This document shows, one piece after another, positions 351 through 34,245 of a DNA stretch of 37,235 nt. The translations under genes were made by a program, and so were the position numbers. This DNA comes from Candidatus Woesearchaeota archaeon. GTDB lineage: Archaea; Nanobdellota; Nanobdellia; SCGC-AAA011-G17; JAGVZH01. The notes beneath the pieces were generated by a model. That model worked only from the letters and a program-made list of their open reading frames with translations, was not told the origin of the DNA and did no database searches. The stretch lies in NCBI GenBank assembly GCA_018302745.1, contig JAGVZH010000014.1:1-37235 (forward strand), in the 5' to 3' direction. Position 1 is the stretch's first letter, and the number at the start of each line of letters is the position of its first letter.

Positions 351-839
351 TTAGGGTGCTGGCGCACACTCCTTAAGTTCAATTTCTTCACTAATATCGC
401 CACATATAACTTCCTGCCCTTCATCTGAAAATGTCGGCCTTAATAATTCCAGTTTAGTTGCTACACTCCCTACACTTTGAGAATCAAATTCCTGTGTGTA
501 GGATTTTATTCCTAAAGCAACCAAACCCAATTCTAATTCTCTGACATCAATCTGATCATCTTCCAATCCTGTAAATCTCAAACTTACCTTATTTATTGTT
601 GCTTCACCTTTATTTTCTAATGTGAAAGTAACGCTGTTTCCCTGATAACATGCTTTTTTTATTTCAAAAGATACCAGATTACTTTGAAGACAGGCCAATT
701 GGCTTTGCGCTTTTTCCCCAGTCTCTTCTGTCAGGCTTTGGGTAAATGCCTTCCCCCATGTAAAGATTACTAAAGCCAATGCAATAGTAAATCCAATAAC
801 TAATACTGTTGCAATCAACGGGCTTATTCCTTTTTTCAT
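351..839 (-). CDS. Archaeal type IV pilin-like protein (Pilin_N / class III signal peptide)
   Basis: 162 aa. The N-terminus MKKGISPLIATVLVIGFTIALALVIF matches the archaeal pilin N-terminal domain pattern (KKG|ISPLIA...). GGAGG (plus-strand cctcc, 845-849) lies 5 nt upstream of the ATG. Four Cys in a 2+2 pattern are shared with the two upstream paralogs. Confidence 0.75.
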   Translation of the reverse strand: MKKGISPLIATVLVIGFTIALALVIFTWGKAFTQSLTEETGEKAQSQLACLQSNLVSFEIKKACYQGNSVTFTLENKGEATINKVSLRFTGLEDDQIDVRELELGLVALGIKSYTQEFDSQSVGSVATKLELLRPTFSDEGQEVICGDISEEIELKECAPAP

Positions 840-849
840 TTTATCCTCC

Positions 850-1314
850 TTAACAGCCTTGAGTTATAAAAACCTCAACAGCTTTTTCCTGGCACAAGCT
901 TATCTTGCCATTAATGCTTAATTTTGGAACTATAAATGCGCTTACTGGAACAGCCAATGTCTGTGTCTGCACATCAACACTTCCAACTTCAAGTCCTTTT
1001 ATTAACTGATTAACATCTGTAACTTCTGACTGGTCTCCTGCATCATTCTCCAGTCTTATTACAAATCCTCTGACATCATTGCCTTTTCTGTTTTCTATAA
1101 TGAAATGCACTCCAGAGCTGTCAACGCATGCTTTTTCAATTCCAAGCTCTACTGCAGTAGAGCATACAACTTCTGCTTCCACAATCTCTCCTGTTTTCCC
1201 TACCCTTTCTTCTGTGAAAGTCTGAACCCAGACAAAAATTATAACAGCTAATGCAATAGTAAACCCAATTAAAAGAACAGTAGCAATCAACGGGCTTATA
1301 CCTCTTTTTTTCAT
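850..1314 (-). CDS. Archaeal type IV pilin-like protein (paralog)
   Basis: The ORF track gives 850..1335. I prefer the internal ATG at 1314-1312 (MKKRGISPLIATVLLIGFTIALAVIIF...). It reproduces the paralog N-terminus and overlaps the upstream stop as TGATG. The MVCRRML extension has no counterpart in the paralogs. Confidence 0.75.
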   Translation of the reverse strand: MKKRGISPLIATVLLIGFTIALAVIIFVWVQTFTEERVGKTGEIVEAEVVCSTAVELGIEKACVDSSGVHFIIENRKGNDVRGFVIRLENDAGDQSEVTDVNQLIKGLEVGSVDVQTQTLAVPVSAFIVPKLSINGKISLCQEKAVEVFITQGC

Positions 1315-1784
1315 CAACATCCTCCGACAAACCATTGAGTTTCTTCCTGGCTCAACTCTGCTTTTTTATCAGCACATCCAGTTTCTTCCCTTATAGGAAC
1401 TGCCTGAAGTTTTATTATTGCTTTGTTCTCTATAGGAACAACAGCTTCTATATTATTATCAGGCAAGAGATTATTATTAAAACTTACTATTTCATTTCCT
1501 AAAGTATTATCGCTGTAAAATATTCTTACTTGAATTTTATTTATTGCCAAAAATCCTCTATTGTTTATTTTTAATTTTATATTCCTGCTTGCCTTATTGC
1601 ATTCTAATGGCTCTGCATTAATAATAATCTTATCGCAGGTAGATCCTCCTTCTACATACTCAATTAAGCTTTCTTTAGTTGTTTCTGCACTTTCTTTTAA
1701 AAAATTTCCAACAATCAAAGCCAAGCTGACTGTTAGGCCTATAATAAGAATCCATGCTATTAATGGAGAAACACCTTTCTTCAT
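1314..1784 (-). CDS. Archaeal type IV pilin-like protein (paralog)
   Basis: 156 aa. The N-terminus is MKKGVSPLIAWILIIGLTVSLALIV. It shows the same Cys pattern (C..C early, C..C at the C-terminus). It overlaps the upstream gene by ATGA (1781-1784). Confidence 0.75.
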   Translation of the reverse strand: MKKGVSPLIAWILIIGLTVSLALIVGNFLKESAETTKESLIEYVEGGSTCDKIIINAEPLECNKASRNIKLKINNRGFLAINKIQVRIFYSDNTLGNEIVSFNNNLLPDNNIEAVVPIENKAIIKLQAVPIREETGCADKKAELSQEETQWFVGGC

Positions 1785-4874: not shown

Positions 4875-5726
4875 ATGGTTCTCAAAAATGATACTACACA
4901 AAAAATAAAAAGATTTGTATATGAGCAGCCAAGAACAGTCCAGGAAATTTCTAATTTCATAAAGAAAAACTGGAGAACAGCAGACAGGTATGTTGAGCAG
5001 ATAAGCAGGGAAGATGGTTCAATTTTAACCAAAACGTTCAGGGGTGGAACTAGAGGTGCTTTAAAAATTGTTTTTTGGAATAATTCTGAAAAAGTATACT
5101 CATCAAGATTTCAGGAAAAACTTTTAGAGAGAATATTAAATTCCAGAAACAAAGAGGATTTTTCTCCGTTTGACATTTATCAGTATGTCGAAGATAAAAA
5201 AAGAAATGCTTTTGCAGAAAAACAGGAATATGAAGCAAAAAAAGTAAGGCAGGATTTATTCAATCTATTCAGGGATGCAAAAAAACAGATTTTTATTTTT
5301 TCTGGTAATCTATCATGGGCAAATTTAAAGCAGAACAAAGAAACAATAGCTGATGTGCTTGAGGAGCTGGCAAAGAAAAAAATAGATATAAATATATTAA
5401 CAAATGTTGATGCAACTAGCTTGGAAAATACAGAGAAGGTTTTGGCAATAAATGAAAGGATAGGCAGGGAAGCTATAAAAGTAAGGCATGCCCAGCAGCC
5501 TTTAAGGGCATTTATAGTTGATGATAAATTAGCAAGATTTAAAGAAGTAAAAAATCCTGAATTAAACAGAAAGGGGGAGATGAAAAAAACTACCTTTATA
5601 TTCTATGAAATATTTGACAAAGAATGGATTTTATGGCTGCAGAAAGTTTTCTGGCATATATTTCATCCAGCAATATTAGCAGAAAAAAGGCTGGATGATT
5701 TAAGATCCATCCACAGATTAAAATGA
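4875..5726 (+). CDS. Putative transcriptional regulator (N-terminal winged-helix plus TrmB-C/PLD-like C-terminal region)
   Basis: 283 aa. The N-terminal segment RTVQEISNFIKKNWRTADRYVEQI is wHTH-like. The C-terminal half resembles the effector domain of TrmB-type proteins. A TATA-like ttaaatat lies 23-30 nt upstream. Confidence 0.4.
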   Translation: MVLKNDTTQKIKRFVYEQPRTVQEISNFIKKNWRTADRYVEQISREDGSILTKTFRGGTRGALKIVFWNNSEKVYSSRFQEKLLERILNSRNKEDFSPFDIYQYVEDKKRNAFAEKQEYEAKKVRQDLFNLFRDAKKQIFIFSGNLSWANLKQNKETIADVLEELAKKKIDINILTNVDATSLENTEKVLAINERIGREAIKVRHAQQPLRAFIVDDKLARFKEVKNPELNRKGEMKKTTFIFYEIFDKEWILWLQKVFWHIFHPAILAEKRLDDLRSIHRLK

Positions 5727-6565
5727 GAATTGGCGGACAAGCAGTAATTGAAGGAGTATTAATGCGCTCTACAAATTATACTGCAATAGCTACAGCAAAA
5801 AACAATAAAATAAAAGTAAAGATAACCAAGAATAATCCTTTCATTAAAAAATATGAAAAGACCCTTTTTATCAGAGGCATAGTCTACTTAATTGATATGC
5901 TTGTTGTAGGAATCAGGGCATTAAGCTATTCAACAAAAGAATTTACTGGAGAAGAGGAAAAAATTTCAGACTGGGGTATTTTTTTGAGTATTCTGCTTGC
6001 ATTTCTTTTTTCTATAGGATTGTTCATAATAGCGCCTTTTTATCTTGCAAAATTATTTCTGCCAAACGGATTTTTATTCAATTTAATAGATGGCTTGTTC
6101 AGAATAGTAATTTTTATTATTTATATAGTGGTAATAGGCAAATTTGCAGATATAAAAAGAGTTTTCCAGTATCATGGAGCAGAGCACAAAACAATAGCTT
6201 GTTATGAGAATAAAAAATCCTTGAATTTAAAAAATATAAAAAAATTTTCTACATTACACCCAAGATGCGGAACAAGCTTCTTGATTATAGTCTTGATATT
6301 AAGCATACTGATTTTCTCATTTATTTTATCAGAATCTACCTTAATAAAAATAAGCTCCAGAATAATCTTAATTCCTGTAATTGCTTCATTGTCTTATGAG
6401 GTTTTGAGGATAGCAGACAAGTATAAAAATTTCTTTTTGTTTAAAATTTTGATTTATCCTGGATTATTATTGCAGAAGATAACCACAAAAGAGCCTGACA
6501 ACAGCCAGATAAAAGTAGCCTTAAAATCTCTTGATGTCTTGCTAAAAAAAGAGAAGAATGGGTAA
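5723..6565 (+). CDS. DUF1385 (YqhQ-like) membrane protein
   Basis: 280 aa. The hallmarks GGQAVIEGVLMR, YHGAEHK and HPRCGTSF are present. It overlaps the upstream gene by ATGA. Confidence 0.75.
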   Translation: MRIGGQAVIEGVLMRSTNYTAIATAKNNKIKVKITKNNPFIKKYEKTLFIRGIVYLIDMLVVGIRALSYSTKEFTGEEEKISDWGIFLSILLAFLFSIGLFIIAPFYLAKLFLPNGFLFNLIDGLFRIVIFIIYIVVIGKFADIKRVFQYHGAEHKTIACYENKKSLNLKNIKKFSTLHPRCGTSFLIIVLILSILIFSFILSESTLIKISSRIILIPVIASLSYEVLRIADKYKNFFLFKILIYPGLLLQKITTKEPDNSQIKVALKSLDVLLKKEKNG

Positions 6566-8339
6566 AATGACTAAAAAAGTTGCAGCAATAGTTGAAAGAA
6601 ACAAATGCCATCCTGACAAATGCCAGCATGAATGCATTAAATATGATCCTATAAACAGGTCTGGCAAAGGGGAAGGCTTTCATATAGGACCTCATGGAAA
6701 AGCAGAGATTTTTGATGAAGTTGTTTCTGAAATCCACAGGATATCTGCCAACAAATGCCCTTTTGAAGCAATTCATATTGTAAAGCTTCCGCAAAAATTA
6801 GAAAATCCTCTTCATAAATACGGGCAGAACGCTTTTGAGTTATATTCCTTGCCTTTGATTAAAGAAAATACAATTGTAGGGATAATAGGAAGGAACGGTA
6901 TAGGCAAATCTACTGCCTTAAACATTCTTTCTGGAAATTTAAAGCCTAATTTAGGAAATTTCAAAGGAGAATCTGAAGAAGAGAATATTCTAAATTATTT
7001 TGCAAAAACCCACCTGAAGGATTATTTCAGGAAATTATTTGATAAAAAAATAAAAGTCGCTTACAAGCCTCAAAGAGTAGAGTTGATACCTTCAATGTAT
7101 AAAGGCAGTGTTATCAATTTACTGGAAAAACATGATGATAAAAAGCTTGCTGATGAATTATTGAAAGAATTGGATTTAAGTGAAATAAAAAACCATGATA
7201 TCTCAAAAATCTCTGGAGGCGAACTTCAAAGGGTAGCAATAATTGCTTCACTAATAAAAGATTCAGATGTGATTTATTTGGATGAGCCAGCCTCTTTCCT
7301 TGACATAACTTACAGGATAAAAGTCGCTAAGTTGATAAGGGAATTTGCAAAAAATACATCGACTTTGGTAGTTGAGCATGACTTGGCAACTTTAGACTAC
7401 ATTTCTGATGAGATTCAAATAGCTTACGGAGAGCATGCATGTTATGGTGTATTTTCACAGTCAAAAGGAGTAAGAAGAGGGATAAATGAATACTTAGACG
7501 GCTATCTGCCTGATGAGAATATAAGATTCAGAGATTATAAAATTGATTTCTCAATACCTCAGATACAAGCTTTGAAATCTGAAGTTTTAGCTTCTTTTCC
7601 TGGATTCGAAAAGTCTTATGAAAAATTCAGATTAAAAGTGAATGAAGCTGAATTTAAAAAATCCCAGGTATTGGCAGTAATGGGTTCAAATGGATTAGGA
7701 AAAACTACTTTTTTAAAAATATTAGCAGGAATAGAAAGTCCGGATAACACAAAGATAGAGCCTTTGTCAATTTCTTACAAACCGCAATACATAGAAGTTA
7801 TTGATGGCACAATAGAAGAGCATTTGAGAAAAGTATCTGGAAGCTTGTTTGATTCAGGATGGTACCAGCAGAATATCTTAGAAAAATTAAATCTAAAGCC
7901 AATAATGAAAAATGAAATAAATTTCTTGTCTGGAGGAGAGCTTCAAAAATTTTACGTTGCATTAACATTATCAAGGGATTCTAAAATAATGGCTTTTGAT
8001 GAGCCTTCTGCTTTTATAGATACAGAAGACAGATTAAAAGTAGCAGAAGTGATAAAAGAATTTACTCAGAAAAAAGAAGTCTCTACTGTTGTTGTAGATC
8101 ATGACATCCAATTCATAGATTATATTGCTGATTCAATGCTGGTTTTTGAAGGAATCCCATCAAAGGAGGGTAATGTCTATGGGCCTTTGACAAAAAAAGA
8201 TGGCATGAATAAAGTTCTAAAAAATTTGGGCATTACTTATAGAAAAGACAAAACTACTTTCAGACCTAGAATAAACAAGCCGCAATCCCAGGTAGATGAG
8301 CAGCAAAAAAAGAATGAGGAATACTATTTGGTCAGTTAA
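6558..8339 (+). CDS. abcE1: ABCE1 / RNase L inhibitor-type ribosome recycling ATPase
   Basis: 593 aa. It has an N-terminal ferredoxin-like region ending in CPFEAIHIVKLP. Two ABC cassettes are present: Walker A GRNGIGKST and GSNGLGKTT, signature LSGGELQ twice, and Walker B IYLDEP / MAFDEP. Confidence 0.9.
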   Translation: MGKMTKKVAAIVERNKCHPDKCQHECIKYDPINRSGKGEGFHIGPHGKAEIFDEVVSEIHRISANKCPFEAIHIVKLPQKLENPLHKYGQNAFELYSLPLIKENTIVGIIGRNGIGKSTALNILSGNLKPNLGNFKGESEEENILNYFAKTHLKDYFRKLFDKKIKVAYKPQRVELIPSMYKGSVINLLEKHDDKKLADELLKELDLSEIKNHDISKISGGELQRVAIIASLIKDSDVIYLDEPASFLDITYRIKVAKLIREFAKNTSTLVVEHDLATLDYISDEIQIAYGEHACYGVFSQSKGVRRGINEYLDGYLPDENIRFRDYKIDFSIPQIQALKSEVLASFPGFEKSYEKFRLKVNEAEFKKSQVLAVMGSNGLGKTTFLKILAGIESPDNTKIEPLSISYKPQYIEVIDGTIEEHLRKVSGSLFDSGWYQQNILEKLNLKPIMKNEINFLSGGELQKFYVALTLSRDSKIMAFDEPSAFIDTEDRLKVAEVIKEFTQKKEVSTVVVDHDIQFIDYIADSMLVFEGIPSKEGNVYGPLTKKDGMNKVLKNLGITYRKDKTTFRPRINKPQSQVDEQQKKNEEYYLVS

Positions 8340-8648: not shown

Positions 8649-8954
8649 ATGGACGGCTTTATAGAAATCACTACAAAAGATAGAATACCAAATGGCCAGG
8701 GAAGAATGTTTGAGGTAAAAGGCATCCCTATAGCAATATTCAACATTGATGGAGAATTTTATGCAATAAATAACACATGCCCTCACAGGGCTGGCAATTT
8801 ATCAGAAGGTTATCTTTCTGGATCTATTGTAACATGCCCGTTGCATGCATGGGAGTTTGATGTTAAATCCGGAAATTCTCCGGCAGGAAATAATATAAAA
8901 GTAGCTTCTTACAAAGTAAAAATAGAAGGAGATAAGATTTTAGTTTCTTTATAA
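8649..8954 (+). CDS. Rieske [2Fe-2S] domain protein (NirD-like small ferredoxin)
   Basis: 101 aa. The Rieske ligand boxes CPHRAGNL and CPLHAWEF are present. Confidence 0.8.
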   Translation: MDGFIEITTKDRIPNGQGRMFEVKGIPIAIFNIDGEFYAINNTCPHRAGNLSEGYLSGSIVTCPLHAWEFDVKSGNSPAGNNIKVASYKVKIEGDKILVSL

Positions 8955-16049: not shown

Positions 16050-17351
16050 TTGAATTTTATGTCAAAAGAAGGTGATATAGTAGAAGTAATAAAATCAGAT
16101 AATAGCAAGATAAAAGGAATTCTGATGCATTCCCATTCTAAAGATTCTAATGTAGTAAAGTTATCTTCCGGTTATAATCTAGCTATTAATAAAAACAAAA
16201 TAAAAAATATTACAATTTTAAAAAAACTTTCCAAAAATAAAAAAGAAAAGATAAAAATCAAGCATAAAAAAGGATTAAAAACTGTTGCAGTTTTGCATAC
16301 AGGAGGGACAATTGCTTCAGAAGTTGATTATGAAACTGGTGCTGTAACGCCAAGATTCTCTCCTGAAGAACTAATTGAAATGTTTCCTGAAATAGAGGAG
16401 ATTATTAATGTTAAATCAAGGCTAATTGCAAATATTTCTTCTGAAGACATGAACTTCTCTCATTATAATTTACTAGCAAAAGAGATTGAAAAGGAAGTTA
16501 AGGAAAAAGTTGATGGCATTATAATAACTCACGGCACAGATACAATGCATTATACTTCTGCTGCTTTATCATTTATCCTTGAGAATTTAGACATCCCAGT
16601 TGTTTTAGTAGGCTCACAAAGGTCTTCTGACAGGGGCTCAACAGACGCGAAAATAAATTTAATTTCTGCAGCTAGGTTTATTGCTGAAACAGATTTTTCA
16701 GAAGTCACAATCTGCATGCATGAAAATATGGAAGACAAAACATGCTTAATTTTTCCTGCATGTAAAGTCAGAAAGATGCACACTTCAAGAAGAGATGCTT
16801 TCAAGACAGTTAATGTAAAGCCGTGGGCAAGAGTTCATTACAAAGACAGAGTTGAAATCTTAGACAGCAGATTCAGGAAAAAGGAGAATAGAAAATTAAA
16901 ATTAAATTTATTCAAGGAAAATTTGAAGGTTGGATTTCTAAAGGCCCACCCAAATATGAAAGCTGATGAAATCAGGATGTATTCAAATTTTGACGGTTTG
17001 GTTTTAGAAGGATATGGAATGGCAGGAAATCTCCCTATAAACAAAACAGACAAATTAACTGCAGAAAATGAAATGATATTAAATGAATTGAAGAAATTGG
17101 CTTCAAAAATTCCTGTTTTAGCAGTTTCTCAGACAATATTTGGAAAGATAAACATGAATGTTTACTCTACTGGAAGATTAATGCAGGAAATTGGAATTTT
17201 GGGAAATTTATTGGATATGACTCCAGAAACAGCTTTTATTAAATTAGCTTGGTTATTAAGCAATCATCCAACACAAGTAAAAGAACTTCTATCCCATAAT
17301 TTAAGGGGAGAACTATCAATAAGATTAAATGAAACTGATTTTATAGAATAA
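16050..17351 (+). CDS. gatD: Glu-tRNA(Gln) amidotransferase subunit D
   Basis: 433 aa. It has an N-terminal beta-domain then an asparaginase-like core (LHTGGTIAS, HGTDTM). The start could instead be the ATG at 16059. Confidence 0.88.
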   Translation: MNFMSKEGDIVEVIKSDNSKIKGILMHSHSKDSNVVKLSSGYNLAINKNKIKNITILKKLSKNKKEKIKIKHKKGLKTVAVLHTGGTIASEVDYETGAVTPRFSPEELIEMFPEIEEIINVKSRLIANISSEDMNFSHYNLLAKEIEKEVKEKVDGIIITHGTDTMHYTSAALSFILENLDIPVVLVGSQRSSDRGSTDAKINLISAARFIAETDFSEVTICMHENMEDKTCLIFPACKVRKMHTSRRDAFKTVNVKPWARVHYKDRVEILDSRFRKKENRKLKLNLFKENLKVGFLKAHPNMKADEIRMYSNFDGLVLEGYGMAGNLPINKTDKLTAENEMILNELKKLASKIPVLAVSQTIFGKINMNVYSTGRLMQEIGILGNLLDMTPETAFIKLAWLLSNHPTQVKELLSHNLRGELSIRLNETDFIE

Positions 17352-21808: not shown

Positions 21809-21973
21809 ATAAAAGACAGGTTAGAAAAAAAGCTAAAGCCTTTAAAGCTTAAGGAAATAAAGATAGAAGGAAACTTTTTAATACATGAAGAATCTGAAAT
21901 ACCTTTACGTAGGATAAAAGAAGTAAAAGAAAGAGGTAAAATAATATGGAGAAGGTCAATTACGAAAAATTAG
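21806..21973 (+). pseudogene. 3' part of the interrupted DUF504/UPF0248 gene
   Basis: ...KDRLEKKLKPLKLKEIKIEGNFLIHEESEIPLRRIKEVKERGKIIWRRSITKN carries the family C-terminal signature IP.(H/R)RI..(I/V)...G..IW.R. The track fuses it in frame to the RNase J fragment as ORF 21596..21973. Confidence 0.6.
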
Positions 21974-23367
21974 GTTTTAAGTGTGGTATTGAAATCCATC
22001 AACAAATTGAAAGCCACAAATTATTCTGCAAATGCCCTTCTCTAGTAAATGATCCTAATGAAGAAAAAATAACTATTCAGAGATATTTAAGAGCTCCGGC
22101 AGGAGAAACAGGGCATATTGATATAGCAGCATTGCATGAATTAAAAAAAGGAAAATACTTTGTTTATGAAGCAAAACCAACTTCTAGCTGCCAAGTTGAG
22201 TTAGATGAATCACCGCCAGAAGAAATAAATCATGATGCATTAGAAACATCTTTGCAGGTAGCTTTAATTTTAAATTGTGATTTAGTAGATGAAGTAATAT
22301 TTATGAGAAAAACAGTAATTGATGGCAGCAATACCTCTGGATTCCAAAGAACAGCTTTAATCGGATTAAATGGTTATGTAAATACATCAAAAGGAAAGGT
22401 AAAAGTAGAAACAGTCTGTTTAGAAGAAGAATCAGCTAAAAAAATAAATGAGGATGAAAAATCAGCAAATTATAGCTTAGACAGACTTGGTGTTCCTTTA
22501 ATAGAAATTGCAACAGATGCTTCAATAAAAGACCCGGAGCATTGCAAAGAAGTTGCTTCTTACTTAGGGATGGTTTTGAGGTCAACTGGAAAAGTTAAGA
22601 GAGGTTTAGGCACTATAAGGCAGGATGTTAATTTATCAATAAAAGGCTCTTCAAGAGTTGAATTAAAGGGTTTTCAGGATTTAAGATCAATACCAAAAGT
22701 AATTGAAAATGAAGTTAAAAGATTAACAAGATTAAAAGACCATAAGCCTGAAGTGAGAAAAGTAGAGCCGAATTTTATGTCTATATTTTTAAGACCAATG
22801 CCTGGTTCATCAAGGATGTATCCTGAAACTGATATAAAGGAGATTTCAATAACAAAAGATTTACTGGCAAAAATTTCTATTCCTGAATTAATAGATGAGA
22901 AAGCATTAAAATTAGAAAAAGAATATAATTTAAATTCTTATTTGGCGAGAGAGTTGATAAAATCTAATGTTAATTTTGATTTATACAAAACAAAGTTTGA
23001 AAAATTACTGCCTTCTTTAATAGCTTCAATACTTGTAGAAATTCCAAAGGAAATAAAAACCAGGTTTAATCTTGATTATAAATTTAAGGAATCTGATTTT
23101 GATTTTGTTTTAAGTGCATTAAATCATGGAAGAATCCCAAAAGACTCTGCTTTGGAAATATTAACAGAGATAGCAAAAGGAAAAAGACCAAATTTAGACA
23201 AATACACATCTGTTGATGAAAAAGAGCTTGAAAATTATATCAAAGAACTGGTAAAGAAAAACAAAGAACTTTCTATAAATGCATTAATGGGTATGGTAAT
23301 GAAACACTATAAAGGCTCTGTAGAAGGCAGTTTAGCTATGAAAATATTAAAAAAATATCATAAATGA
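21946..23367 (+). CDS. gatE: Glu-tRNA(Gln) amidotransferase subunit E (short form)
   Basis: 473 aa. It has LGFKCGIEIHQQIESHKLFCKCPS, GTIRQDVNLSI, RPMPGSSRMYPETD and a YqeY-like tail. It is about 140 aa shorter than the GatE proteins I know of. Confidence 0.85.
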   Translation: MEKVNYEKLGFKCGIEIHQQIESHKLFCKCPSLVNDPNEEKITIQRYLRAPAGETGHIDIAALHELKKGKYFVYEAKPTSSCQVELDESPPEEINHDALETSLQVALILNCDLVDEVIFMRKTVIDGSNTSGFQRTALIGLNGYVNTSKGKVKVETVCLEEESAKKINEDEKSANYSLDRLGVPLIEIATDASIKDPEHCKEVASYLGMVLRSTGKVKRGLGTIRQDVNLSIKGSSRVELKGFQDLRSIPKVIENEVKRLTRLKDHKPEVRKVEPNFMSIFLRPMPGSSRMYPETDIKEISITKDLLAKISIPELIDEKALKLEKEYNLNSYLARELIKSNVNFDLYKTKFEKLLPSLIASILVEIPKEIKTRFNLDYKFKESDFDFVLSALNHGRIPKDSALEILTEIAKGKRPNLDKYTSVDEKELENYIKELVKKNKELSINALMGMVMKHYKGSVEGSLAMKILKKYHK

Positions 23368-24288: not shown

Positions 24289-26643
24289 ATGAGCAAAAAA
24301 GAAGAGTCAATTCAAAATTTAATTCTGAATTATTTAAAGAGAAATAAAAATAAGAAAGTAATAGCAATAAGAATAGGCTATAGAACATTTTATGCTACAG
24401 GAAAAAGTCTTTCAGAAAAAATAGCTAAAATTCAGGAGCTTTTTAAAAATGAAAATATCTCAAAGGGGGATAAGATAATTATTTTTGGAAAGAATTCAAT
24501 AGAATGGATATCTGTTTATTTTGCTTCAATTTTGTCAGGGACTATAATAATTCCATTGGATTTATTAACAGACCATTCTTTACTAAAAAAAATTCAGAAA
24601 CAGGTTAATGCAAAAGCCATCTTTCAGGACTCTAATTTAGTAAGATTAAAGCCTGTTAAAAAATTTTATCTTGATAATCTTGATGATAGTCTAAGATTAC
24701 TTAAAAATGAGGCAATATACTCTGAGAATATACTTGATGATGACATTTTGGAAATAATTTACACTTCTGGCTCAACAGGAGATCCAAAAGGAGTTGTCTT
24801 AACAAATAAAAATATAACCTCTGGATTAAATTCTGCTAGATCTTCAGTAAAGTTAAATTTTAAACTGAAAATTCTTAATCTTCTTCCATTAAGCCATATT
24901 CTTTCCCAGATCTATGGCTTATTTCTTTTGATGCATTCAAACAATCAGATTTATTTCATGGATTCTATAAAATCAAAAAAAATAATTTCATTTATAAGAA
25001 ATAAAAAAATTAACGGGGCTATTTTAGTTCCAGGAATTTTAAGGGCTTTAAAAAAAGATCTTGAAAATAAATCATTTATCTCAAACTTAGGACTGCAATT
25101 CAGATTTTTTGGAGTCGGAGGATCTTTTTTAGACAATGAATTAGAAAAATGGTTCAGAAGACATCTTATTTTAGTAATTCAGGGATATGGATTAACAGAA
25201 ACTTCATCTGTCCTAACTACAAATACTCTATTTTCCCAAAAAGTGGGAAGTGTTGGTAAGATAGCAAAAGATGTGGATGTTAAAATTTCAGAAGATGGAG
25301 AAATTTTAGTAAAAGGTAATAATGTAACATCCTGTTATTATAAAGATTCTGAAAAAACAAAAGATTCATTTGAAGGACAATGGTTTAAAACAGGTGATTT
25401 GGGATATTTAAAGGATAATTATATTTATCTCAAAGGGAGGAAAAAAGATATTATCATAACAGGCACAGGCCTTAATGTTTATCCTTCCGATATAGAAAAA
25501 GTTTTAAACAAATTTCCGGAAGTAAAAGAAAGCTGTGTTCTGGAAAAAAACGATAAAATACATGCTGTATTAATATTAAAGAAAAAAACTGATTTAAACA
25601 AACTGGTAAAAGGGGCAAATTCCATGCTTCTTGCACACCAAAAAATTTCATCTTATTCTTTATGGCATGAAAATAATTTTCCTAAAACAAATACTGGAAA
25701 GATAAAAAAATTCATTGTTTCCGAAGAATTGGAAAAAATAAAAGCAAGATCATATTTTTATAAAGAAGAATTGCATAAAATAATAAATAATGTTCTGAAT
25801 CCTTCCAATAAGATTAAAGAAAACTCAAAGCTTTCTGACTTAGGTATGGATTCTTTGAGAAGAATAGAGCTTATTTCTGAAATAGAAGATGAATTTGGGA
25901 TTGGATTAAATGAAGCTGATATAAACCAGTATACAAAAGTTTCTGATCTAAGAAAATTAATGGCAAAAGAAAAGTTAGAGGAAATAAAGTTCAAAAAATG
26001 GCAGTTAAATCCTTTAGTAAGAATTTTTGGAAACATATTAAGAGTAATTATTTCATATCCTTTAGTCTTTAGCTTTGCAAAAGTCTCATATGAAGGCCTT
26101 GAAAATCTTAAAGATTTAAAGTATCCGGTAATATTTGCAAGCAATCACCAAAGTGCATGGGATCCTGTTGTAATAATAAAGTCTATAAAAACTAGAACTG
26201 CGATTCCCACACATCCAATGATTTTCGGAATAGGAGTTAAAAAGCATAAATTAAAAAGAAAAATTAGGGGTTTTTTAGCATCTTTAGCCTTTAATGCCTA
26301 TCCTTTTGGAGAAAAAATAGGAACAGAAAAAAGCTTAGAGTTTACAGCAGAGATGATAGATGATAATTACAGTATTTTAATATTTCCCGAAGGCAGAAGG
26401 ACAAATGACGGAAAAATAAAGCCTTTTATGCAGGGAATAGGATATCTTGCTTTAGCCATGAACTTGCCGATAATTCCAGTAAAGATTTCGGGCTTATTTG
26501 ATATTCTTCCGATAAATAAAACAATGCCAAAAAAAGGCAAGGTTATTGTAAAGTTTGGAAAGCCAATAAATCAGGATAAATTAAAAAACATTTCTTATAT
26601 TAAAGCGACTAAATTAATTGAAAAAAAGGTTAAAGAACTATGA
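24289..26643 (+). CDS. Tri-domain fusion of acyl-AMP/CoA ligase, acyl carrier domain and PlsC-type acyltransferase
   Basis: 784 aa. Ligase motifs are TSGSTGDPKG (24763-24792), GYGLTETS, WFKTGDLG and NTGKIKK. The carrier motif is LGMDSLRRIEL, with the Ser codon at 25852-25854. Acyltransferase motifs are NHQSAWD (HX4D, 26143-26163) and FPEGRR (26383-26397). Confidence 0.85.
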   Translation: MSKKEESIQNLILNYLKRNKNKKVIAIRIGYRTFYATGKSLSEKIAKIQELFKNENISKGDKIIIFGKNSIEWISVYFASILSGTIIIPLDLLTDHSLLKKIQKQVNAKAIFQDSNLVRLKPVKKFYLDNLDDSLRLLKNEAIYSENILDDDILEIIYTSGSTGDPKGVVLTNKNITSGLNSARSSVKLNFKLKILNLLPLSHILSQIYGLFLLMHSNNQIYFMDSIKSKKIISFIRNKKINGAILVPGILRALKKDLENKSFISNLGLQFRFFGVGGSFLDNELEKWFRRHLILVIQGYGLTETSSVLTTNTLFSQKVGSVGKIAKDVDVKISEDGEILVKGNNVTSCYYKDSEKTKDSFEGQWFKTGDLGYLKDNYIYLKGRKKDIIITGTGLNVYPSDIEKVLNKFPEVKESCVLEKNDKIHAVLILKKKTDLNKLVKGANSMLLAHQKISSYSLWHENNFPKTNTGKIKKFIVSEELEKIKARSYFYKEELHKIINNVLNPSNKIKENSKLSDLGMDSLRRIELISEIEDEFGIGLNEADINQYTKVSDLRKLMAKEKLEEIKFKKWQLNPLVRIFGNILRVIISYPLVFSFAKVSYEGLENLKDLKYPVIFASNHQSAWDPVVIIKSIKTRTAIPTHPMIFGIGVKKHKLKRKIRGFLASLAFNAYPFGEKIGTEKSLEFTAEMIDDNYSILIFPEGRRTNDGKIKPFMQGIGYLALAMNLPIIPVKISGLFDILPINKTMPKKGKVIVKFGKPINQDKLKNISYIKATKLIEKKVKEL

Positions 26644-26972
26644 AAATAAGAATAGGATGCGATATAGTAAAAATCAGCAGATTTGATAATATCAAGAAGA
26701 AAACTCTGGAAAGAATATTCCACAAAAATGAAATTAAAAAATCAAAAATGAATCCAGAAACTCTTGCAGGGATTTTTGCTGCAAAGGAAAGCTGCAAAAA
26801 AGTCTTTAATGATATTAATTGGCATGATATAGAAATTAAGAAGAAAAGAAATGGCAAACCTTTGCTTATCTTAGGAAAAGACAAAGGCGTAGCAAGTTCT
26901 GACTTAAGCATTAGTCATGATGGAGATTATGCTATAGCCAGTGTGGTTTTTTTAATTCGTGAGGTTCAATAA
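26640..26972 (+). CDS. acpS: Holo-ACP synthase (AcpS-type 4'-phosphopantetheinyl transferase)
   Basis: 110 aa. It has IGCDIVKISRF, FAAKESCKK and LSISHDGDYAIASV, matching the AcpS pattern (G.D.v...R...., .A.KEA..KA, .S.SH....A.A). It overlaps the upstream gene by ATGA. Confidence 0.8.
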   Translation: MKIRIGCDIVKISRFDNIKKKTLERIFHKNEIKKSKMNPETLAGIFAAKESCKKVFNDINWHDIEIKKKRNGKPLLILGKDKGVASSDLSISHDGDYAIASVVFLIREVQ

Positions 26973-31591: not shown

Positions 31592-32953
31592 ATGTTAAGG
31601 ACTCATAATTGCGGTGAATTAACTAAAAAAGACAAAGGAAAAGAAGTAATTTTATCAGGTTGGCTGCATTCTTCAAGAGTTCAAAAAAAATTCAGTTTTA
31701 TTGATTTAAGAGATAGATATGGAGTGACACAATTATTCTTAGATGAAAAATTTAATGACCAAATTTCAAAATTAGGAAAAGAATCTGTTATACAGGCTAA
31801 AGGTATTGTTCAGGTAAAACCTGCTCCAAATCCAAAATTAAAAACTGGAGAAATAGAAGTTAAGGTTTCTTCTATAGAAGTTCTGAATGAATCAGATGAG
31901 TTGCCTTTGGATTTGTCTGGAGAGATTGAATCAACAGAAGAAACAAGATTGAAGTACAGATATCTGGATTTAAGAACAGAAAAGATGAAGAATAATATAA
32001 TAACAAGGTATAAAATTACAAAATCAATAAGGGATTCTCTTCACAAACAGGATTTTTTAGAGATAGAAACTCCTATGCTGGCAAAGTCAACTCCAGAAGG
32101 TGCAAGGGATTATTTAGTTCCTTCGAGAGTTAATCCAAAAAAATTCTTTGCCCTTCCACAGTCGCCCCAGATATTTAAGCAGTTATTGATGGTTTCCGGA
32201 TTTGACAGATACTTTCAGATAGTAAGATGCTTCAGGGATGAGGATTTAAGAGCTGACAGGCAGCCAGAATTCACTCAATTGGACATGGAGATGAGTTTTG
32301 TTGGAGAAGAAGATGTTTATTTTGCAATAGAACAGTTAATGAAAGATATCTGGAAAGATGTTTTGAACATTAATATAAAAATCCCATTCCAAAGAATGAC
32401 TTATGAAGAAGCTATAAAAAAACATAAAACTGACAAGCCAGATTTGAGAAAAAACAAAGATGAATATGCATTTTTGTGGGTTACAGATTTTCCATTGTTG
32501 GATTTTAATGAAGAAGAAAAGAGATATGTTGCAATGCACCATCCATTTACAAGCCCAAAATTAGAAGATGTTAAATTGCTTGACAAAAATCCTGAAAAGG
32601 CAAGGGCAAGAGCCTATGATTTAGTATTAAATGGAGAGGAAATTGGCGGCGGTTCGATAAGGATCCATAAAAAAGAATTGCAGGAAAAAATATTCAATGC
32701 TATTAAGATGACTAAAAAAGAGGCTGAAGATAAGTTCGGGTTTTTGATGAATGCTTTTAAATATGGAGCCCCTCCTCATGGAGGCATTGCATTAGGCTTG
32801 GATAGGATAGCAGCAATAGTGACTGGAAACAGCAATATAAGGGAAGTTATAGCTTTTCCAAAAAACCAGGATGCAAAGGACTTGATGATGGGTTCTCCAT
32901 CTGAAGTTGATAAAAGTCAATTAAAGGAATTAGGAATAAAGTTTGAAAAATGA
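31592..32953 (+). CDS. aspS: Aspartyl-tRNA synthetase, bacterial-type sequence without the GAD insertion
   Basis: 453 aa. It has MLRTHNCGEL, FFALPQSPQIFKQLLMVSGFDRYFQIVRCFRDEDLRADRQPEFTQLDMEMSF, HHPFTSPK and GGIALGLDR. Confidence 0.88.
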   Translation: MLRTHNCGELTKKDKGKEVILSGWLHSSRVQKKFSFIDLRDRYGVTQLFLDEKFNDQISKLGKESVIQAKGIVQVKPAPNPKLKTGEIEVKVSSIEVLNESDELPLDLSGEIESTEETRLKYRYLDLRTEKMKNNIITRYKITKSIRDSLHKQDFLEIETPMLAKSTPEGARDYLVPSRVNPKKFFALPQSPQIFKQLLMVSGFDRYFQIVRCFRDEDLRADRQPEFTQLDMEMSFVGEEDVYFAIEQLMKDIWKDVLNINIKIPFQRMTYEEAIKKHKTDKPDLRKNKDEYAFLWVTDFPLLDFNEEEKRYVAMHHPFTSPKLEDVKLLDKNPEKARARAYDLVLNGEEIGGGSIRIHKKELQEKIFNAIKMTKKEAEDKFGFLMNAFKYGAPPHGGIALGLDRIAAIVTGNSNIREVIAFPKNQDAKDLMMGSPSEVDKSQLKELGIKFEK

Positions 32954-34245
32954 AATTTATATCAATACAGGAAGCATTGGATAAAAAAGAAGGAAAGGTT
33001 TCTCTAAGAGGATGGGTTTACAGGGAAAGAAAGCAGAAAGAGATGGCTTTCATAGTCATGAGAGATTCCTCAAACATAATTCAGTGCGTAGTGAAGGAAG
33101 ACAAAGTTAGCAAAAAAGAATGGGAAGACGCAAACAAGATTCTTATTGAATCATCATTAGAAATAGAAGGAACTTTAAAAGAGGATAAGAGAGCCCCAAC
33201 AGGCTATGAATTACAAGTTTCTAAATTGAATGTTATTCATTTTGCAGAAAAATTTCCAATCTCAAAAGACCATTCTCCGGAATTTTTGCTTGATGTAAGG
33301 CATCTGTCATTAAGATCAAGAAAATTAACCAATGTTTTAAAAGTGAGATCAACAGTTTTTAAAGCAATACATGATTACTTCAGGTCATTTGGATATTATG
33401 AGTATCATTCTCCCTGCTTCACTCCAAATGCAGCAGAAGGAGGCTCAACTCTGTTCAAAGTGGATTATTTTGGCAAGCCGATTTATCTTACTCAAACCTG
33501 GCAGTTATATGCAGAAGCAGGAATTTTTGCTTTGGAAAAAATATATACAATAGCGCCTTCATTCAGGTCAGAAAAATCAAAAACATCAAGGCATCTAACA
33601 GAATATTGGCATGCCGAAGTTGAGACTGCATGGCAGCATTTTCCTGAACTATTAGATCTGGCAGAAGGATTAATAAAATATATAGTAAAAACAGTACTAA
33701 AAGAAAACAAAAAAGAATTAGATATATTAGGAAGGGATACAAAAAAACTAGAGCCTATAGTAAAGGAAAAATTTCCAAGAATAACTTACAAAGAAGCTTT
33801 GAAAATCCTTGAGCAAAAGGCGAAAATAAAAATTCCATACGGAAAGGACTTAAGGACAGTAGAAGAAGATGCTTTGTCAAAACTTTATAATACTCCTGTT
33901 TTTGTAACGCATTATCCAAAGATAATAAAGGCTTTTTACATGAAAGAGGATGATAAAGATAAAGGTGCAGTTTTAGGCTCAGACTTAATAGCGACAGAAG
34001 GTTATGGGGAAATTATTGGGGCAAGTGAAAGAGAAACAGATATTAAAGAGCTGGAAAAGAAACTAAAAGCTCAGGGTGAGGACCCAAAAAAGTATGGATG
34101 GTATTTGGATACAAGAAGGTATGGAAGTGTTCCTCATGCCGGATTTGGATTAGGTGTAGAAAGAGTGATTGCATGGGTTTGCGGCTTGGATAATATTAAG
34201 GATGCTATTCCATTCCCAAGAACAATGTTAAGGTATCAGCCTTAA
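32950..34245 (+). CDS. asnS: Asparaginyl-tRNA synthetase
   Basis: 431 aa. It has YLTQTWQLYAE, FRSEKSKTSRHLTEYWHAEVE and WYLDTRRYGSVPHAGFGLGVER. It overlaps aspS by ATGA. Confidence 0.85.
   Translation: MKFISIQEALDKKEGKVSLRGWVYRERKQKEMAFIVMRDSSNIIQCVVKEDKVSKKEWEDANKILIESSLEIEGTLKEDKRAPTGYELQVSKLNVIHFAEKFPISKDHSPEFLLDVRHLSLRSRKLTNVLKVRSTVFKAIHDYFRSFGYYEYHSPCFTPNAAEGGSTLFKVDYFGKPIYLTQTWQLYAEAGIFALEKIYTIAPSFRSEKSKTSRHLTEYWHAEVETAWQHFPELLDLAEGLIKYIVKTVLKENKKELDILGRDTKKLEPIVKEKFPRITYKEALKILEQKAKIKIPYGKDLRTVEEDALSKLYNTPVFVTHYPKIIKAFYMKEDDKDKGAVLGSDLIATEGYGEIIGASERETDIKELEKKLKAQGEDPKKYGWYLDTRRYGSVPHAGFGLGVERVIAWVCGLDNIKDAIPFPRTMLRYQP

Follow-up and report, generated by a model that had tools for sequence, protein, structure and literature searches.

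Few proteins of archaea and eukaryotes are as conserved and essential as ABCE1, and the reason why this mechanical ribosome splitter carries oxygen-labile Fe-S clusters has long been an open question. In reviews, both the eight cysteines of the protein and its two [4Fe-4S] clusters are described as conserved and essential (PMC8153317, PMC13255074). A 37,235-nucleotide stretch of DNA from a Candidatus Woesearchaeota archaeon (contig JAGVZH010000014.1, positions 1 to 37,235 of the forward strand; the whole stretch is termed the window) encodes an ABCE1, also known as RLI, with only four of these cysteines. A first-pass annotation had proposed that this protein keeps exactly one of the two clusters. 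The locus raises the question of whether an ABCE1 altered in this way is functional, which of the clusters has gone and what occupies the vacated site. The features of the gene were as follows, with residues counted from the first ATG (6558); NBD denotes a nucleotide-binding domain, FeS iron-sulphur and x any residue.

6558..8339, + strand: ABCE1/RLI coding sequence; 593 aa if read from the first ATG, 590 aa from ATG 6567, the likely start
6567..6791, + strand: N-terminal FeS-type domain, residues 4-78 (Pfam PF04068 Fer4_RLI, E = 7e-10)
6606..6650, + strand: box 1, C17-x4-C22-x3-C26-x3-D30-P31, Cys1-3 retained and Cys4 replaced by Asp (sequence and alignments); codons C17 6606-6608, C22 6621-6623, C26 6633-6635, D30-P31 6645-6650
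6675..6683, + strand: G40-F41-H42 motif, specific to the variant (conservation; alignment to human ABCE1)
6726..6761, + strand: box 2, S57-x2-H60-x2-S63-x3-C67-P68, Cys5-7 replaced and Cys8 retained (sequence and alignments); codons S57 6726-6728, H60 6735-6737, S63 6744-6746, C67-P68 6756-6761
6792..7547, + strand: NBD1 with the ABCE1 helix-loop-helix insertion, limits approximate (Pfam ABC_tran residues 101-245; structure model)
7548..8336, + strand: hinge 1, NBD2 and hinge 2, limits approximate (second ABC_tran stretch; structure model)

Identity and cysteine pattern of the window ABCE1

The identity of the protein was examined using sequence and profile searches. A phmmer search returned P. 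abyssi ABCE1 (PDB 3bk7) as a full-length match (E = 6e-160, 43% identity), with the ABCE1 entries of the PDB spanning E = 1e-123 to 6e-160, and end-to-end alignments were also obtained with the yeast, human and S. solfataricus proteins. The score on the NCBIfam RLI equivalog NF009945 was 733 bits (cut-off 469), with the match extending over positions 4-590 of the 592 in the model, and the Pfam content was one Fer4_RLI and two ABC_tran domains. Both NBDs had an intact Walker A, an LSGGE signature, a Walker B with its Glu and an H-loop. These motifs were invariant in 114 homologues, both in NBD1 (Walker A G108-K117, signature S219-Q224, Walker B D242-E243 and H274) and in NBD2 (G376-T384, S458-Q463, D481-E482 and H515). 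The window protein agrees with ABCE1 in its family profile, ATPase motifs, predicted architecture, ABCE1-type cluster motif and small-subunit contact residues, which together support orthology; it departs from the eight-cysteine rule and is filed as a variant ABCE1.

Gene callers and homologues use the second ATG (i.e. 6567, MTKKV...), which sits two bases past the stop of an upstream DUF1385 gene, while the first ATG (6558) overlaps this stop by 8 bases. Residue numbers from the likely start are 3 lower than those used here; hence the numbering of the first-pass annotation is correct from ATG 6558 but 3 too high for the likely protein.

The codons of both boxes, which lie within the first 230 bases of the 593-codon open reading frame, read exactly as had been described (C17/C22/C26/D30-P and S57/H60/S63/C67-P). 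In phmmer alignments with P. abyssi (3bk7), human and yeast ABCE1, box 2 was ungapped and placed S57, H60 and S63 at Cys5, Cys6 and Cys7; D30 occupied the position of Cys4, and C17, C22, C26 and C67 corresponded to Cys1, 2, 3 and 8. A MAFFT alignment moved Cys5 by one residue, onto V56, with no cysteine found there under either alignment. Spacing of the ligands was kept, except for three rather than four residues between Cys2 and Cys3, which is eukaryote-like, and one extra loop residue. The proposal that the cysteines were lost by substitution and not by deletion therefore stands.

Assignment of the cysteines to clusters was taken from two reviews (PMC13255074, PMC8153317). One ABCE1 cluster is ferredoxin-like and the other ABCE1-type (PMC8153317), and the ligand sets of human ABCE1 are C16-C21-C25-C65 and C29(38)-C55-C58-C61 (2026 review, PMC13255074, Table 1). 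As the published sets split in the same way, the lost Cys4-7 are the complete ferredoxin-like set and the kept Cys1, 2, 3 and 8 the complete ABCE1-type set. The alignments with archaeal and eukaryotic ABCE1 placed all of these residues as claimed and left no partial ligand set, so that the central claim of the first-pass annotation, that one full set is lost and the other full set kept, agrees with both the alignments and the published ligands. The ABCE1-type cluster motif, CxPx2Cx3C...CP, is present as C17-H-P19-D-K-C22-Q-H-E-C26 ... C67-P68. No match to the Fer4-type CxxCxxCxxxCP models PF00037, PF12837 and PF14697 was obtained for the window ABCE1; matches to these models were present in canonical relatives (e.g. 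P0038, P0049 and P0058) but absent in the variant relatives described below. Pfam Fer4-type annotation, or its absence, can thus flag such ABCE1 variants. Random loss of four of the eight cysteines would strip exactly the ligands of one cluster in 2 of 70 combinations; recurrence of the pattern in about 104 homologues is a stronger argument than this chance estimate.

These results indicate that the window protein is probably a functional ABCE1 that has lost the ferredoxin-like cluster and would keep the ABCE1-type [4Fe-4S] cluster through C17, C22, C26 and C67. Cluster binding by the four remaining cysteines, an unoccupied altered site and ribosome splitting by the protein are inferred from these data.

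Conservation and authenticity of the altered domain

The distribution of the altered domain was tallied for the window, its 120 best database homologues and 80 loci of GTDB species-representative genomes. The same domain type was found in about 104 Woesearchaeota/Nanoarchaeota homologues, representing 81 distinct N-terminal domains, in proteins 55-82% identical to the window protein, and was carried by 33 of the 79 classifiable GTDB species-representative loci. Cys1, 2, 3 and 8 were unvarying across the variant group, P19, P31, N33 and P68 were invariant or nearly so, and C17, C22, C26 and P31 were invariant in the 114 homologues. At the former ferredoxin-like positions, position 4 was Asp in all but two sequences (P0083 and L037), which retain Cys; in a separate regular-expression tally, Asp stood there in all 104 variant-type sequences, with these two counted in addition as sharing the box 2 type. 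Position 5 varied (T/M/S/Q/N/L), position 6 was His in every sequence, and among the 81 domains position 7 was occupied by Cys (40), Ser (37) or Pro (4). A survey of relatives for the S/H/S/D pattern of the window thus upheld the Asp and the His (bar the two sequences at position 4), but not the Ser at position 7, which is Cys in about half of the relatives. Similarly, the statement that exactly four ligands were lost holds for the window and for about half of its relatives, with the other half keeping Cys7.

Further residues were conserved among the variant domains. G40 and F41 were invariant, H42 was present in 75 of the 81 domains, with Arg or Lys in the other 6, and E25 and E58 were conserved. 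G40 aligns with C38 of human ABCE1, an extra cysteine able to stand in for Cys4 in ligating the ferredoxin-like cluster, hence the designation 'C29 (38)' (PMC13255074). From this alignment, F41 and H42 are probably located on the strand bordering the former cluster site.

Selection on the altered domain was assessed by the Nei-Gojobori method for pairs of variant genes. The ratio of nonsynonymous to synonymous substitution rates (dN/dS) was 0-0.07 for the N-terminal domain as compared to 0.025-0.15 for the ATPase domains, and dN was lower in the N-terminal domain in every variant pair. Mean pairwise identity among variants was 0.667 for the FeS domain and 0.610 for the ATPase domains; the order was reversed among canonical relatives (0.596 and 0.646, respectively). 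The loop between the boxes had pairwise identities of 0.62 in the variant and 0.47 in canonical proteins. Purifying selection acts on the altered domain no less strongly than on the ATPase domains. With a dN/dS of 0-0.07, and with variant domains resembling one another more closely than canonical FeS domains do, the argument of the first-pass annotation for a coordinated loss, as opposed to random decay, is supported.

An artefact, in the form of a sequencing or assembly error, a pseudogene or a drifting redundant paralog, would also produce missing cysteines. Contigs from four independent groundwater and soil runs exhibited 0 differences over positions 6450-6950, and the exact window protein was read on 24 contigs (ENA and Logan assemblies), with an index listing it in 39 blocks of the collection; all runs containing the sequence were groundwater and soil metagenomes. 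The pattern is clade-wide and not a singleton, being kept in 33 species-level genomes with one locus each, and the gene has an unbroken frame and a full set of ATPase motifs. Sequence error and pseudogene status are refuted by the identical independent contigs, the intact frame and the low dN/dS. In favour of an artefact or decay, the gene was found in none of six RNA (metatranscriptome) runs, with a word share of 0.00 in each. For the paralog version, none of the 80 best GTDB loci, from 80 different assemblies, was accompanied by a second ABCE1, but these metagenome-assembled genomes (MAGs) are incomplete and a second copy is formally possible. The gene order bears on the same point, the neighbour upstream being:

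5723..6565, + strand: DUF1385 gene directly upstream of ABCE1 (Pfam DUF1385, E = 4e-85)

Using tblastn, DUF1385 was found as the immediate upstream neighbour of ABCE1 at 7 variant loci and at 3 loci retaining the ferredoxin-like site (i.e. two with eight and one with seven cysteines). As this order is common to variant and canonical loci, the variant is probably an ortholog at the ancestral position and not a paralog. With the syntenic position, the independent contigs and the constrained FeS domain taken together, an artefactual or decaying gene is hardly credible.

The nearest relatives are MAGs labelled Woesearchaeota, Nanoarchaeota or Nanoarchaeia, the G+C content of the window is 32.5%, and archaeal housekeeping genes were found in it, namely those for deoxyhypusine synthase, ATP-dependent DNA ligase, FtsZ, GatD/GatE, the primase small subunit, TrmB and two class-II aminoacyl-tRNA synthetases. 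Variants were found in groundwater, soil and Tara ocean samples, and canonical forms occurred in the same aquifer data sets. An explanation in terms of oxic habitats was considered but is not claimed.

Three further patterns were observed among the relatives. The domain of P0083 and L037 is of the variant type (L-x2-H-x2-S, GFR) yet has Cys at position 4 (K-Y-C-P), and could have persisted from an intermediate state or have arisen by reversion. A seven-cysteine form occurs in Nanoarchaeota (loci L023, L039, L043 and L073; proteins P0059, P0111, P0128 and P0130), with Cys5 replaced by S/N/T and always followed by Asp (x-D-[AG]-C-x2-C-x3-CP); this form could hold a cluster ligated by three cysteines and Asp or a [3Fe-4S] cluster. 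Finally, an eight-cysteine form from the same phylum has a box 2 of C-x2-C-x2-C-x2-CP, one residue fewer before Cys8 than the canonical x3 (loci L021, L048, L049, L053, L055, L059, L067 and L068; proteins P0050, P0057, P0062 and others).

The vacated site and its possible occupants

An AlphaFold2 model of the window protein was built on the 114 homologues. Mean pLDDT was 93, with 91-94 for the N-terminal domain, and pTM was 0.87; comparison with 3bk7 by Foldseek gave a TM score of 0.93 and a root-mean-square deviation of 2.3 over 591 columns. The altered domain is predicted to keep the fold of an ABCE1 FeS domain. The canonical FeS domain is a rigid body that is pushed out on closure of the ATPase sites and contributes to ribosome splitting; afterwards it docks at a site bounded by h44, the h5-h15 junction and uS12 (PMC7196836, PMC13255074). 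In S. solfataricus, the contacts of this domain with the small subunit are made by K15, N17, E19, P25, R28, S29 and K59 (PMC7196836), which map by alignment to K21, Q23, E25, P31, R34, S35 and N65 of the window protein. Among the 81 variant domains, K/R21 was found in 77, E25, P31 and R/K34 in all 81, S35 in 47 (A in 13) and K65 in 57 (N in 20). The contact residues cluster in and around box 1 and beside Cys8, that is, in the retained part of the domain.

The window protein thus shares with canonical archaeal ABCE1 (P. abyssi, 3bk7; S. solfataricus, 6tmf chain d) the twin ATPase domains, the hinges and the helix-loop-helix insertion, together with the ABCE1-type motif (Cys1, 2, 3 and 8) and the FeS-domain residues contacting h44, h5 and uS12. 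It differs in having D/S/H/S in place of the ferredoxin-like ligands, a gained G-F-H strand and a constrained loop.

The altered site is most likely empty of metal, judging from the residues that occupy it. The vacated space would be filled by conserved side chains, with D30 in place of Cys4, H60 in place of Cys6, and the G40-F41-H42 strand and E58 alongside. Packing of F41 and a polar network of D30, H42, H60 and E58 may replace both the space and the cross-links provided by the lost cluster, so that the shape of the domain would be kept. ATP-driven closure of the ATPase domains would then swing the domain out as a wedge against the A-site factor and split the ribosome, after which the domain would dock on the small subunit at h44/uS12. 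Acceptance of Pro at position 63 and of Arg or Lys (Tyr in halophiles) in place of H42 favours a role in hydrogen bonding, salt bridges or packing over metal ligation.

A mononuclear Zn or Fe, or an unusual Fe-S cluster, might instead be held at this site by D30, H60 and H42, with the addition of Cys63 in half of the clade, which would make the protein an ABCE1 with one cluster and one other metal; we consider this unlikely. Ligation of Fe-S clusters and of Zn by Asp and His is established chemistry. Asp stands at the Cys4 position in all but two variant-type sequences and His at that of Cys6 in all of them, and each is found in 120 of 120 members of a cysteine-free class described in the next section. 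Moreover, H42 lies two residues along the strand from G40, the equivalent of the eukaryotic spare ligand Cys38, and probably faces the old site, and Cys7 persists in 40 of 81 variant domains. A ligand role is, however, hard to square with the replacement of H42 by Arg or Lys in 6 of the 81 variant domains and by Tyr in 24 of the 120 cysteine-free proteins, and also with the variable, non-ligand residues at position 5 and the occurrence of Ser (37 domains) or Pro (4 domains) at position 63. The window protein would offer at most three plausible ligands, with zero cysteines among them, and a hydrogen-bond or salt-bridge network of the form Asp-His(-Arg/Lys/Tyr) accounts for the same conservation.

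Several observations weigh against an ABCE1 with a single cluster and an empty second site. The two former ligand positions with an unvarying Asp or His are precisely those where known Fe-S and metal ligands now stand, and retention of Cys7 in half of the clade leaves room for a non-standard cofactor. The cluster number is read from the sequence, AlphaFold tends toward holo-like folds and its model is silent on metal occupancy, the copy-number check covers the 80 best loci, and the RNA runs described above lacked the gene. According to yeast genetics, most of the cysteines in either cluster are essential (PMC13255074, PMC3442406). On balance, the proposal of the first-pass annotation that this is a functional single-cluster ABCE1 is supported by the combined data, with the cluster content deduced from the ligand pattern.

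The yeast data permit a direct comparison. Both clusters have been described as essential, with no fewer than seven out of eight cysteines needed in yeast (PMC13255074, PMC8153317), and the variant group contradicts this yeast-based view that both are needed. The viable C58A mutant of yeast Rli1, which lacks Cys6, contains a [3Fe-4S] cluster and shows hypersensitivity to oxidants (PMC3442406). The ferredoxin-like site therefore tolerates loss of Cys6, the very position that is invariantly His in the variant. The yeast mutant is, however, laboratory-made, has lost one ligand and keeps a damaged cluster, whereas the variant is natural and has lost three or four ligands; its compensating residues are under purifying selection, while the other yeast cysteines are mostly essential. 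The data point to the ferredoxin-like cluster as the more dispensable of the two. Through its clusters, Rli1 is a target of oxidative stress, and the clusters have been proposed as the point at which oxidative stress and Fe-S supply affect translation (PMC3442406).

No description of a single-cluster or cluster-free ABCE1 was encountered in the full-text literature searched, with most subscription journals lying outside this search. The probable single-cluster ABCE1 is a new natural variant of a known family and is widespread in one archaeal phylum; the finding bears on how genome-reduced DPANN archaea cut their Fe-S demand. TFE-beta of Haloferax volcanii is reported to be without the cubane Fe-S cluster of canonical TFE-beta (PMC5861453). 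It is a precedent in which an archaeal protein of information processing has lost a structural [4Fe-4S] cluster in a particular lineage, although protein and fold are unrelated and the likeness is one of analogy only.

Cysteine-free relatives and genes neighbouring ABCE1

A word-index search with the FeS domain by itself gave only 4 short fragments. A search with the window N-terminal domain against representatives clustered at 50% identity, a library that collapses most ABCE1 and is unsuited to counting variant clusters, detected full-length ABCE1 of 580-600 aa without any cysteine in the N-terminal domain. About 120 such proteins were listed (P0141, P0160, P0191 and P0254-P0372), none with a Pfam Fer4_RLI match. 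Many bear the name RLI in database entries from Halobacteria (Haloplanus, Halosimplex, Natrinema, Halopiger, Natronobacterium, Natronococcus, Salinarchaeum and Halorhabdus), and others do so in Nanohaloarchaeota (Ca. Nanosalina and others), examples being P0275 of Haloplanus aerogenes and P0335/P0349 of Ca. Nanosalina. One cysteine-free protein tested on the RLI model scored 590 bits. The class shares a derived signature with the window variant, [YF]-D-P-L-N-R-S-G-x-E-G-F-[HY] ... V-M-x-E-H ... P, in which Asp at position 4, G40, F41 and His at position 6 were each present in 120 of 120 proteins. It differs from the variant in the absence of Cys1, 2, 3 and 8, and so of any cluster site, with Cys1 replaced by V/I, Cys2 by V/L/I, Cys3 by A/V, Cys7 by I/V/A and Cys8 by I/Y/V. 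An AlphaFold model of P0160 had an N-terminal pLDDT of about 90 and TM scores of up to 0.85 against ribosome-bound ABCE1 structures. Modelling of a cysteine-free ABCE1 with the same signature in the same fold indicates that the architecture can stand without clusters.

These proteins also raise the possibility that the window ABCE1 has no Fe-S cluster at all and already resembles the halophile form, with its four cysteines holding Zn or sitting in the core. In relatives with the same signature, Cys1, 2, 3 and 8 are replaced by V/I/L/A/Y, and these proteins still look like intact ABCE1; the RLI score and the N-terminal pLDDT given above imply that the four cysteines are dispensable in principle. 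Yet C17, C22, C26, C67, P19 and P68 are invariant or nearly so in all canonical relatives and in the roughly 104 variant ones, the cysteines are spaced precisely as in the ABCE1-type motif, and the genome uses Fe-S proteins. This last point follows from a gene for a small Rieske [2Fe-2S] protein at 8649-8954 (+ strand), 310 bases downstream of ABCE1 and adjoining ABCE1 in other assemblies, from which it appears that the organism still makes Fe-S proteins. Continued ligation is the simplest explanation of the strict retention of cysteines, and complete absence of a cluster seems distinctly improbable.

Relationships among the three forms were examined using neighbour-joining trees of the ATPase domains with bootstrap support. 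Woesearchaeota-type proteins, both variant and canonical, formed one clade (100% bootstrap) and the cysteine-free proteins a separate clade (69%). The variant was not monophyletic; variant and canonical proteins were interleaved, with mostly weak support at mixed nodes, and one mixed clade contained 31 variant and 7 canonical proteins (84%). The N-terminal signature cuts across the ATPase-domain tree, for which possible explanations are a single origin with domain exchange, poor resolution together with halophile compositional bias, or convergence. Nesting of a canonical eight-cysteine group (P0095-P0097, P0099, P0105, P0106 and P0114) inside the 84% variant-type clade hints at exchange of N-terminal domains between lineages or at a tree artefact. 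Domain swapping is not claimed, as neighbour-joining was not trusted sufficiently for this purpose.

Comparison of these groups suggests a series from two clusters to one (Woesearchaeota/Nanoarchaeota) and then to none (Nanohaloarchaeota and Halobacteria), with the window protein representing the middle stage. It is conceivable, and is put forward tentatively, that the whole series uses one shared, cluster-independent solution to folding (D-P-x-N-R-S-G-x-E-G-F-H ... H) with a single origin, spread by descent or by exchange of N-terminal domains. If true, the clusters of ABCE1 would be dispensable structural props and not redox or sensing devices, and nature would already have run an experiment that yeast genetics could not. 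ABCE1 of H. volcanii has been reported to be essential (PMC3828320). The variant and cysteine-free groups are material for asking what each cluster contributes and how the fold is stabilised without clusters.

Other features of the window were recorded alongside ABCE1. An antisense open reading frame overlapping the start of the gene (6441..6794, - strand, 117 aa, TTG start) lies inside conserved coding sequence and was rejected as spurious. Three tandem paralogous genes at 354-1784 (- strand) encode proteins of 162, 161 and 156 aa that are 33-41% identical, start with MKKG[IV]SPLIA followed by a hydrophobic helix and have no Pfam match in any of the three; the N-terminus resembles a class III signal peptide as found in type IV pilin-like proteins of archaea. 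Amidotransferase genes of the GatD and GatE type are located at 16050-17351 and 21946-23367. At 31592-34245 (+ strand), two class-II aminoacyl-tRNA synthetase genes of the Asp/Asn/Lys type lie side by side; their products have lengths of 453 and 431 aa, and both contain an OB anticodon-binding domain. A gene at 24289-26972 (+ strand) encodes a protein of 784 aa in which an AMP-binding enzyme is fused to a phosphopantetheine carrier and an acyltransferase, similar to bacterial Aas, and is directly followed by a 4'-phosphopantetheinyl transferase gene; this is a bacterial-looking lipid acylation module, unexpected in an archaeon.

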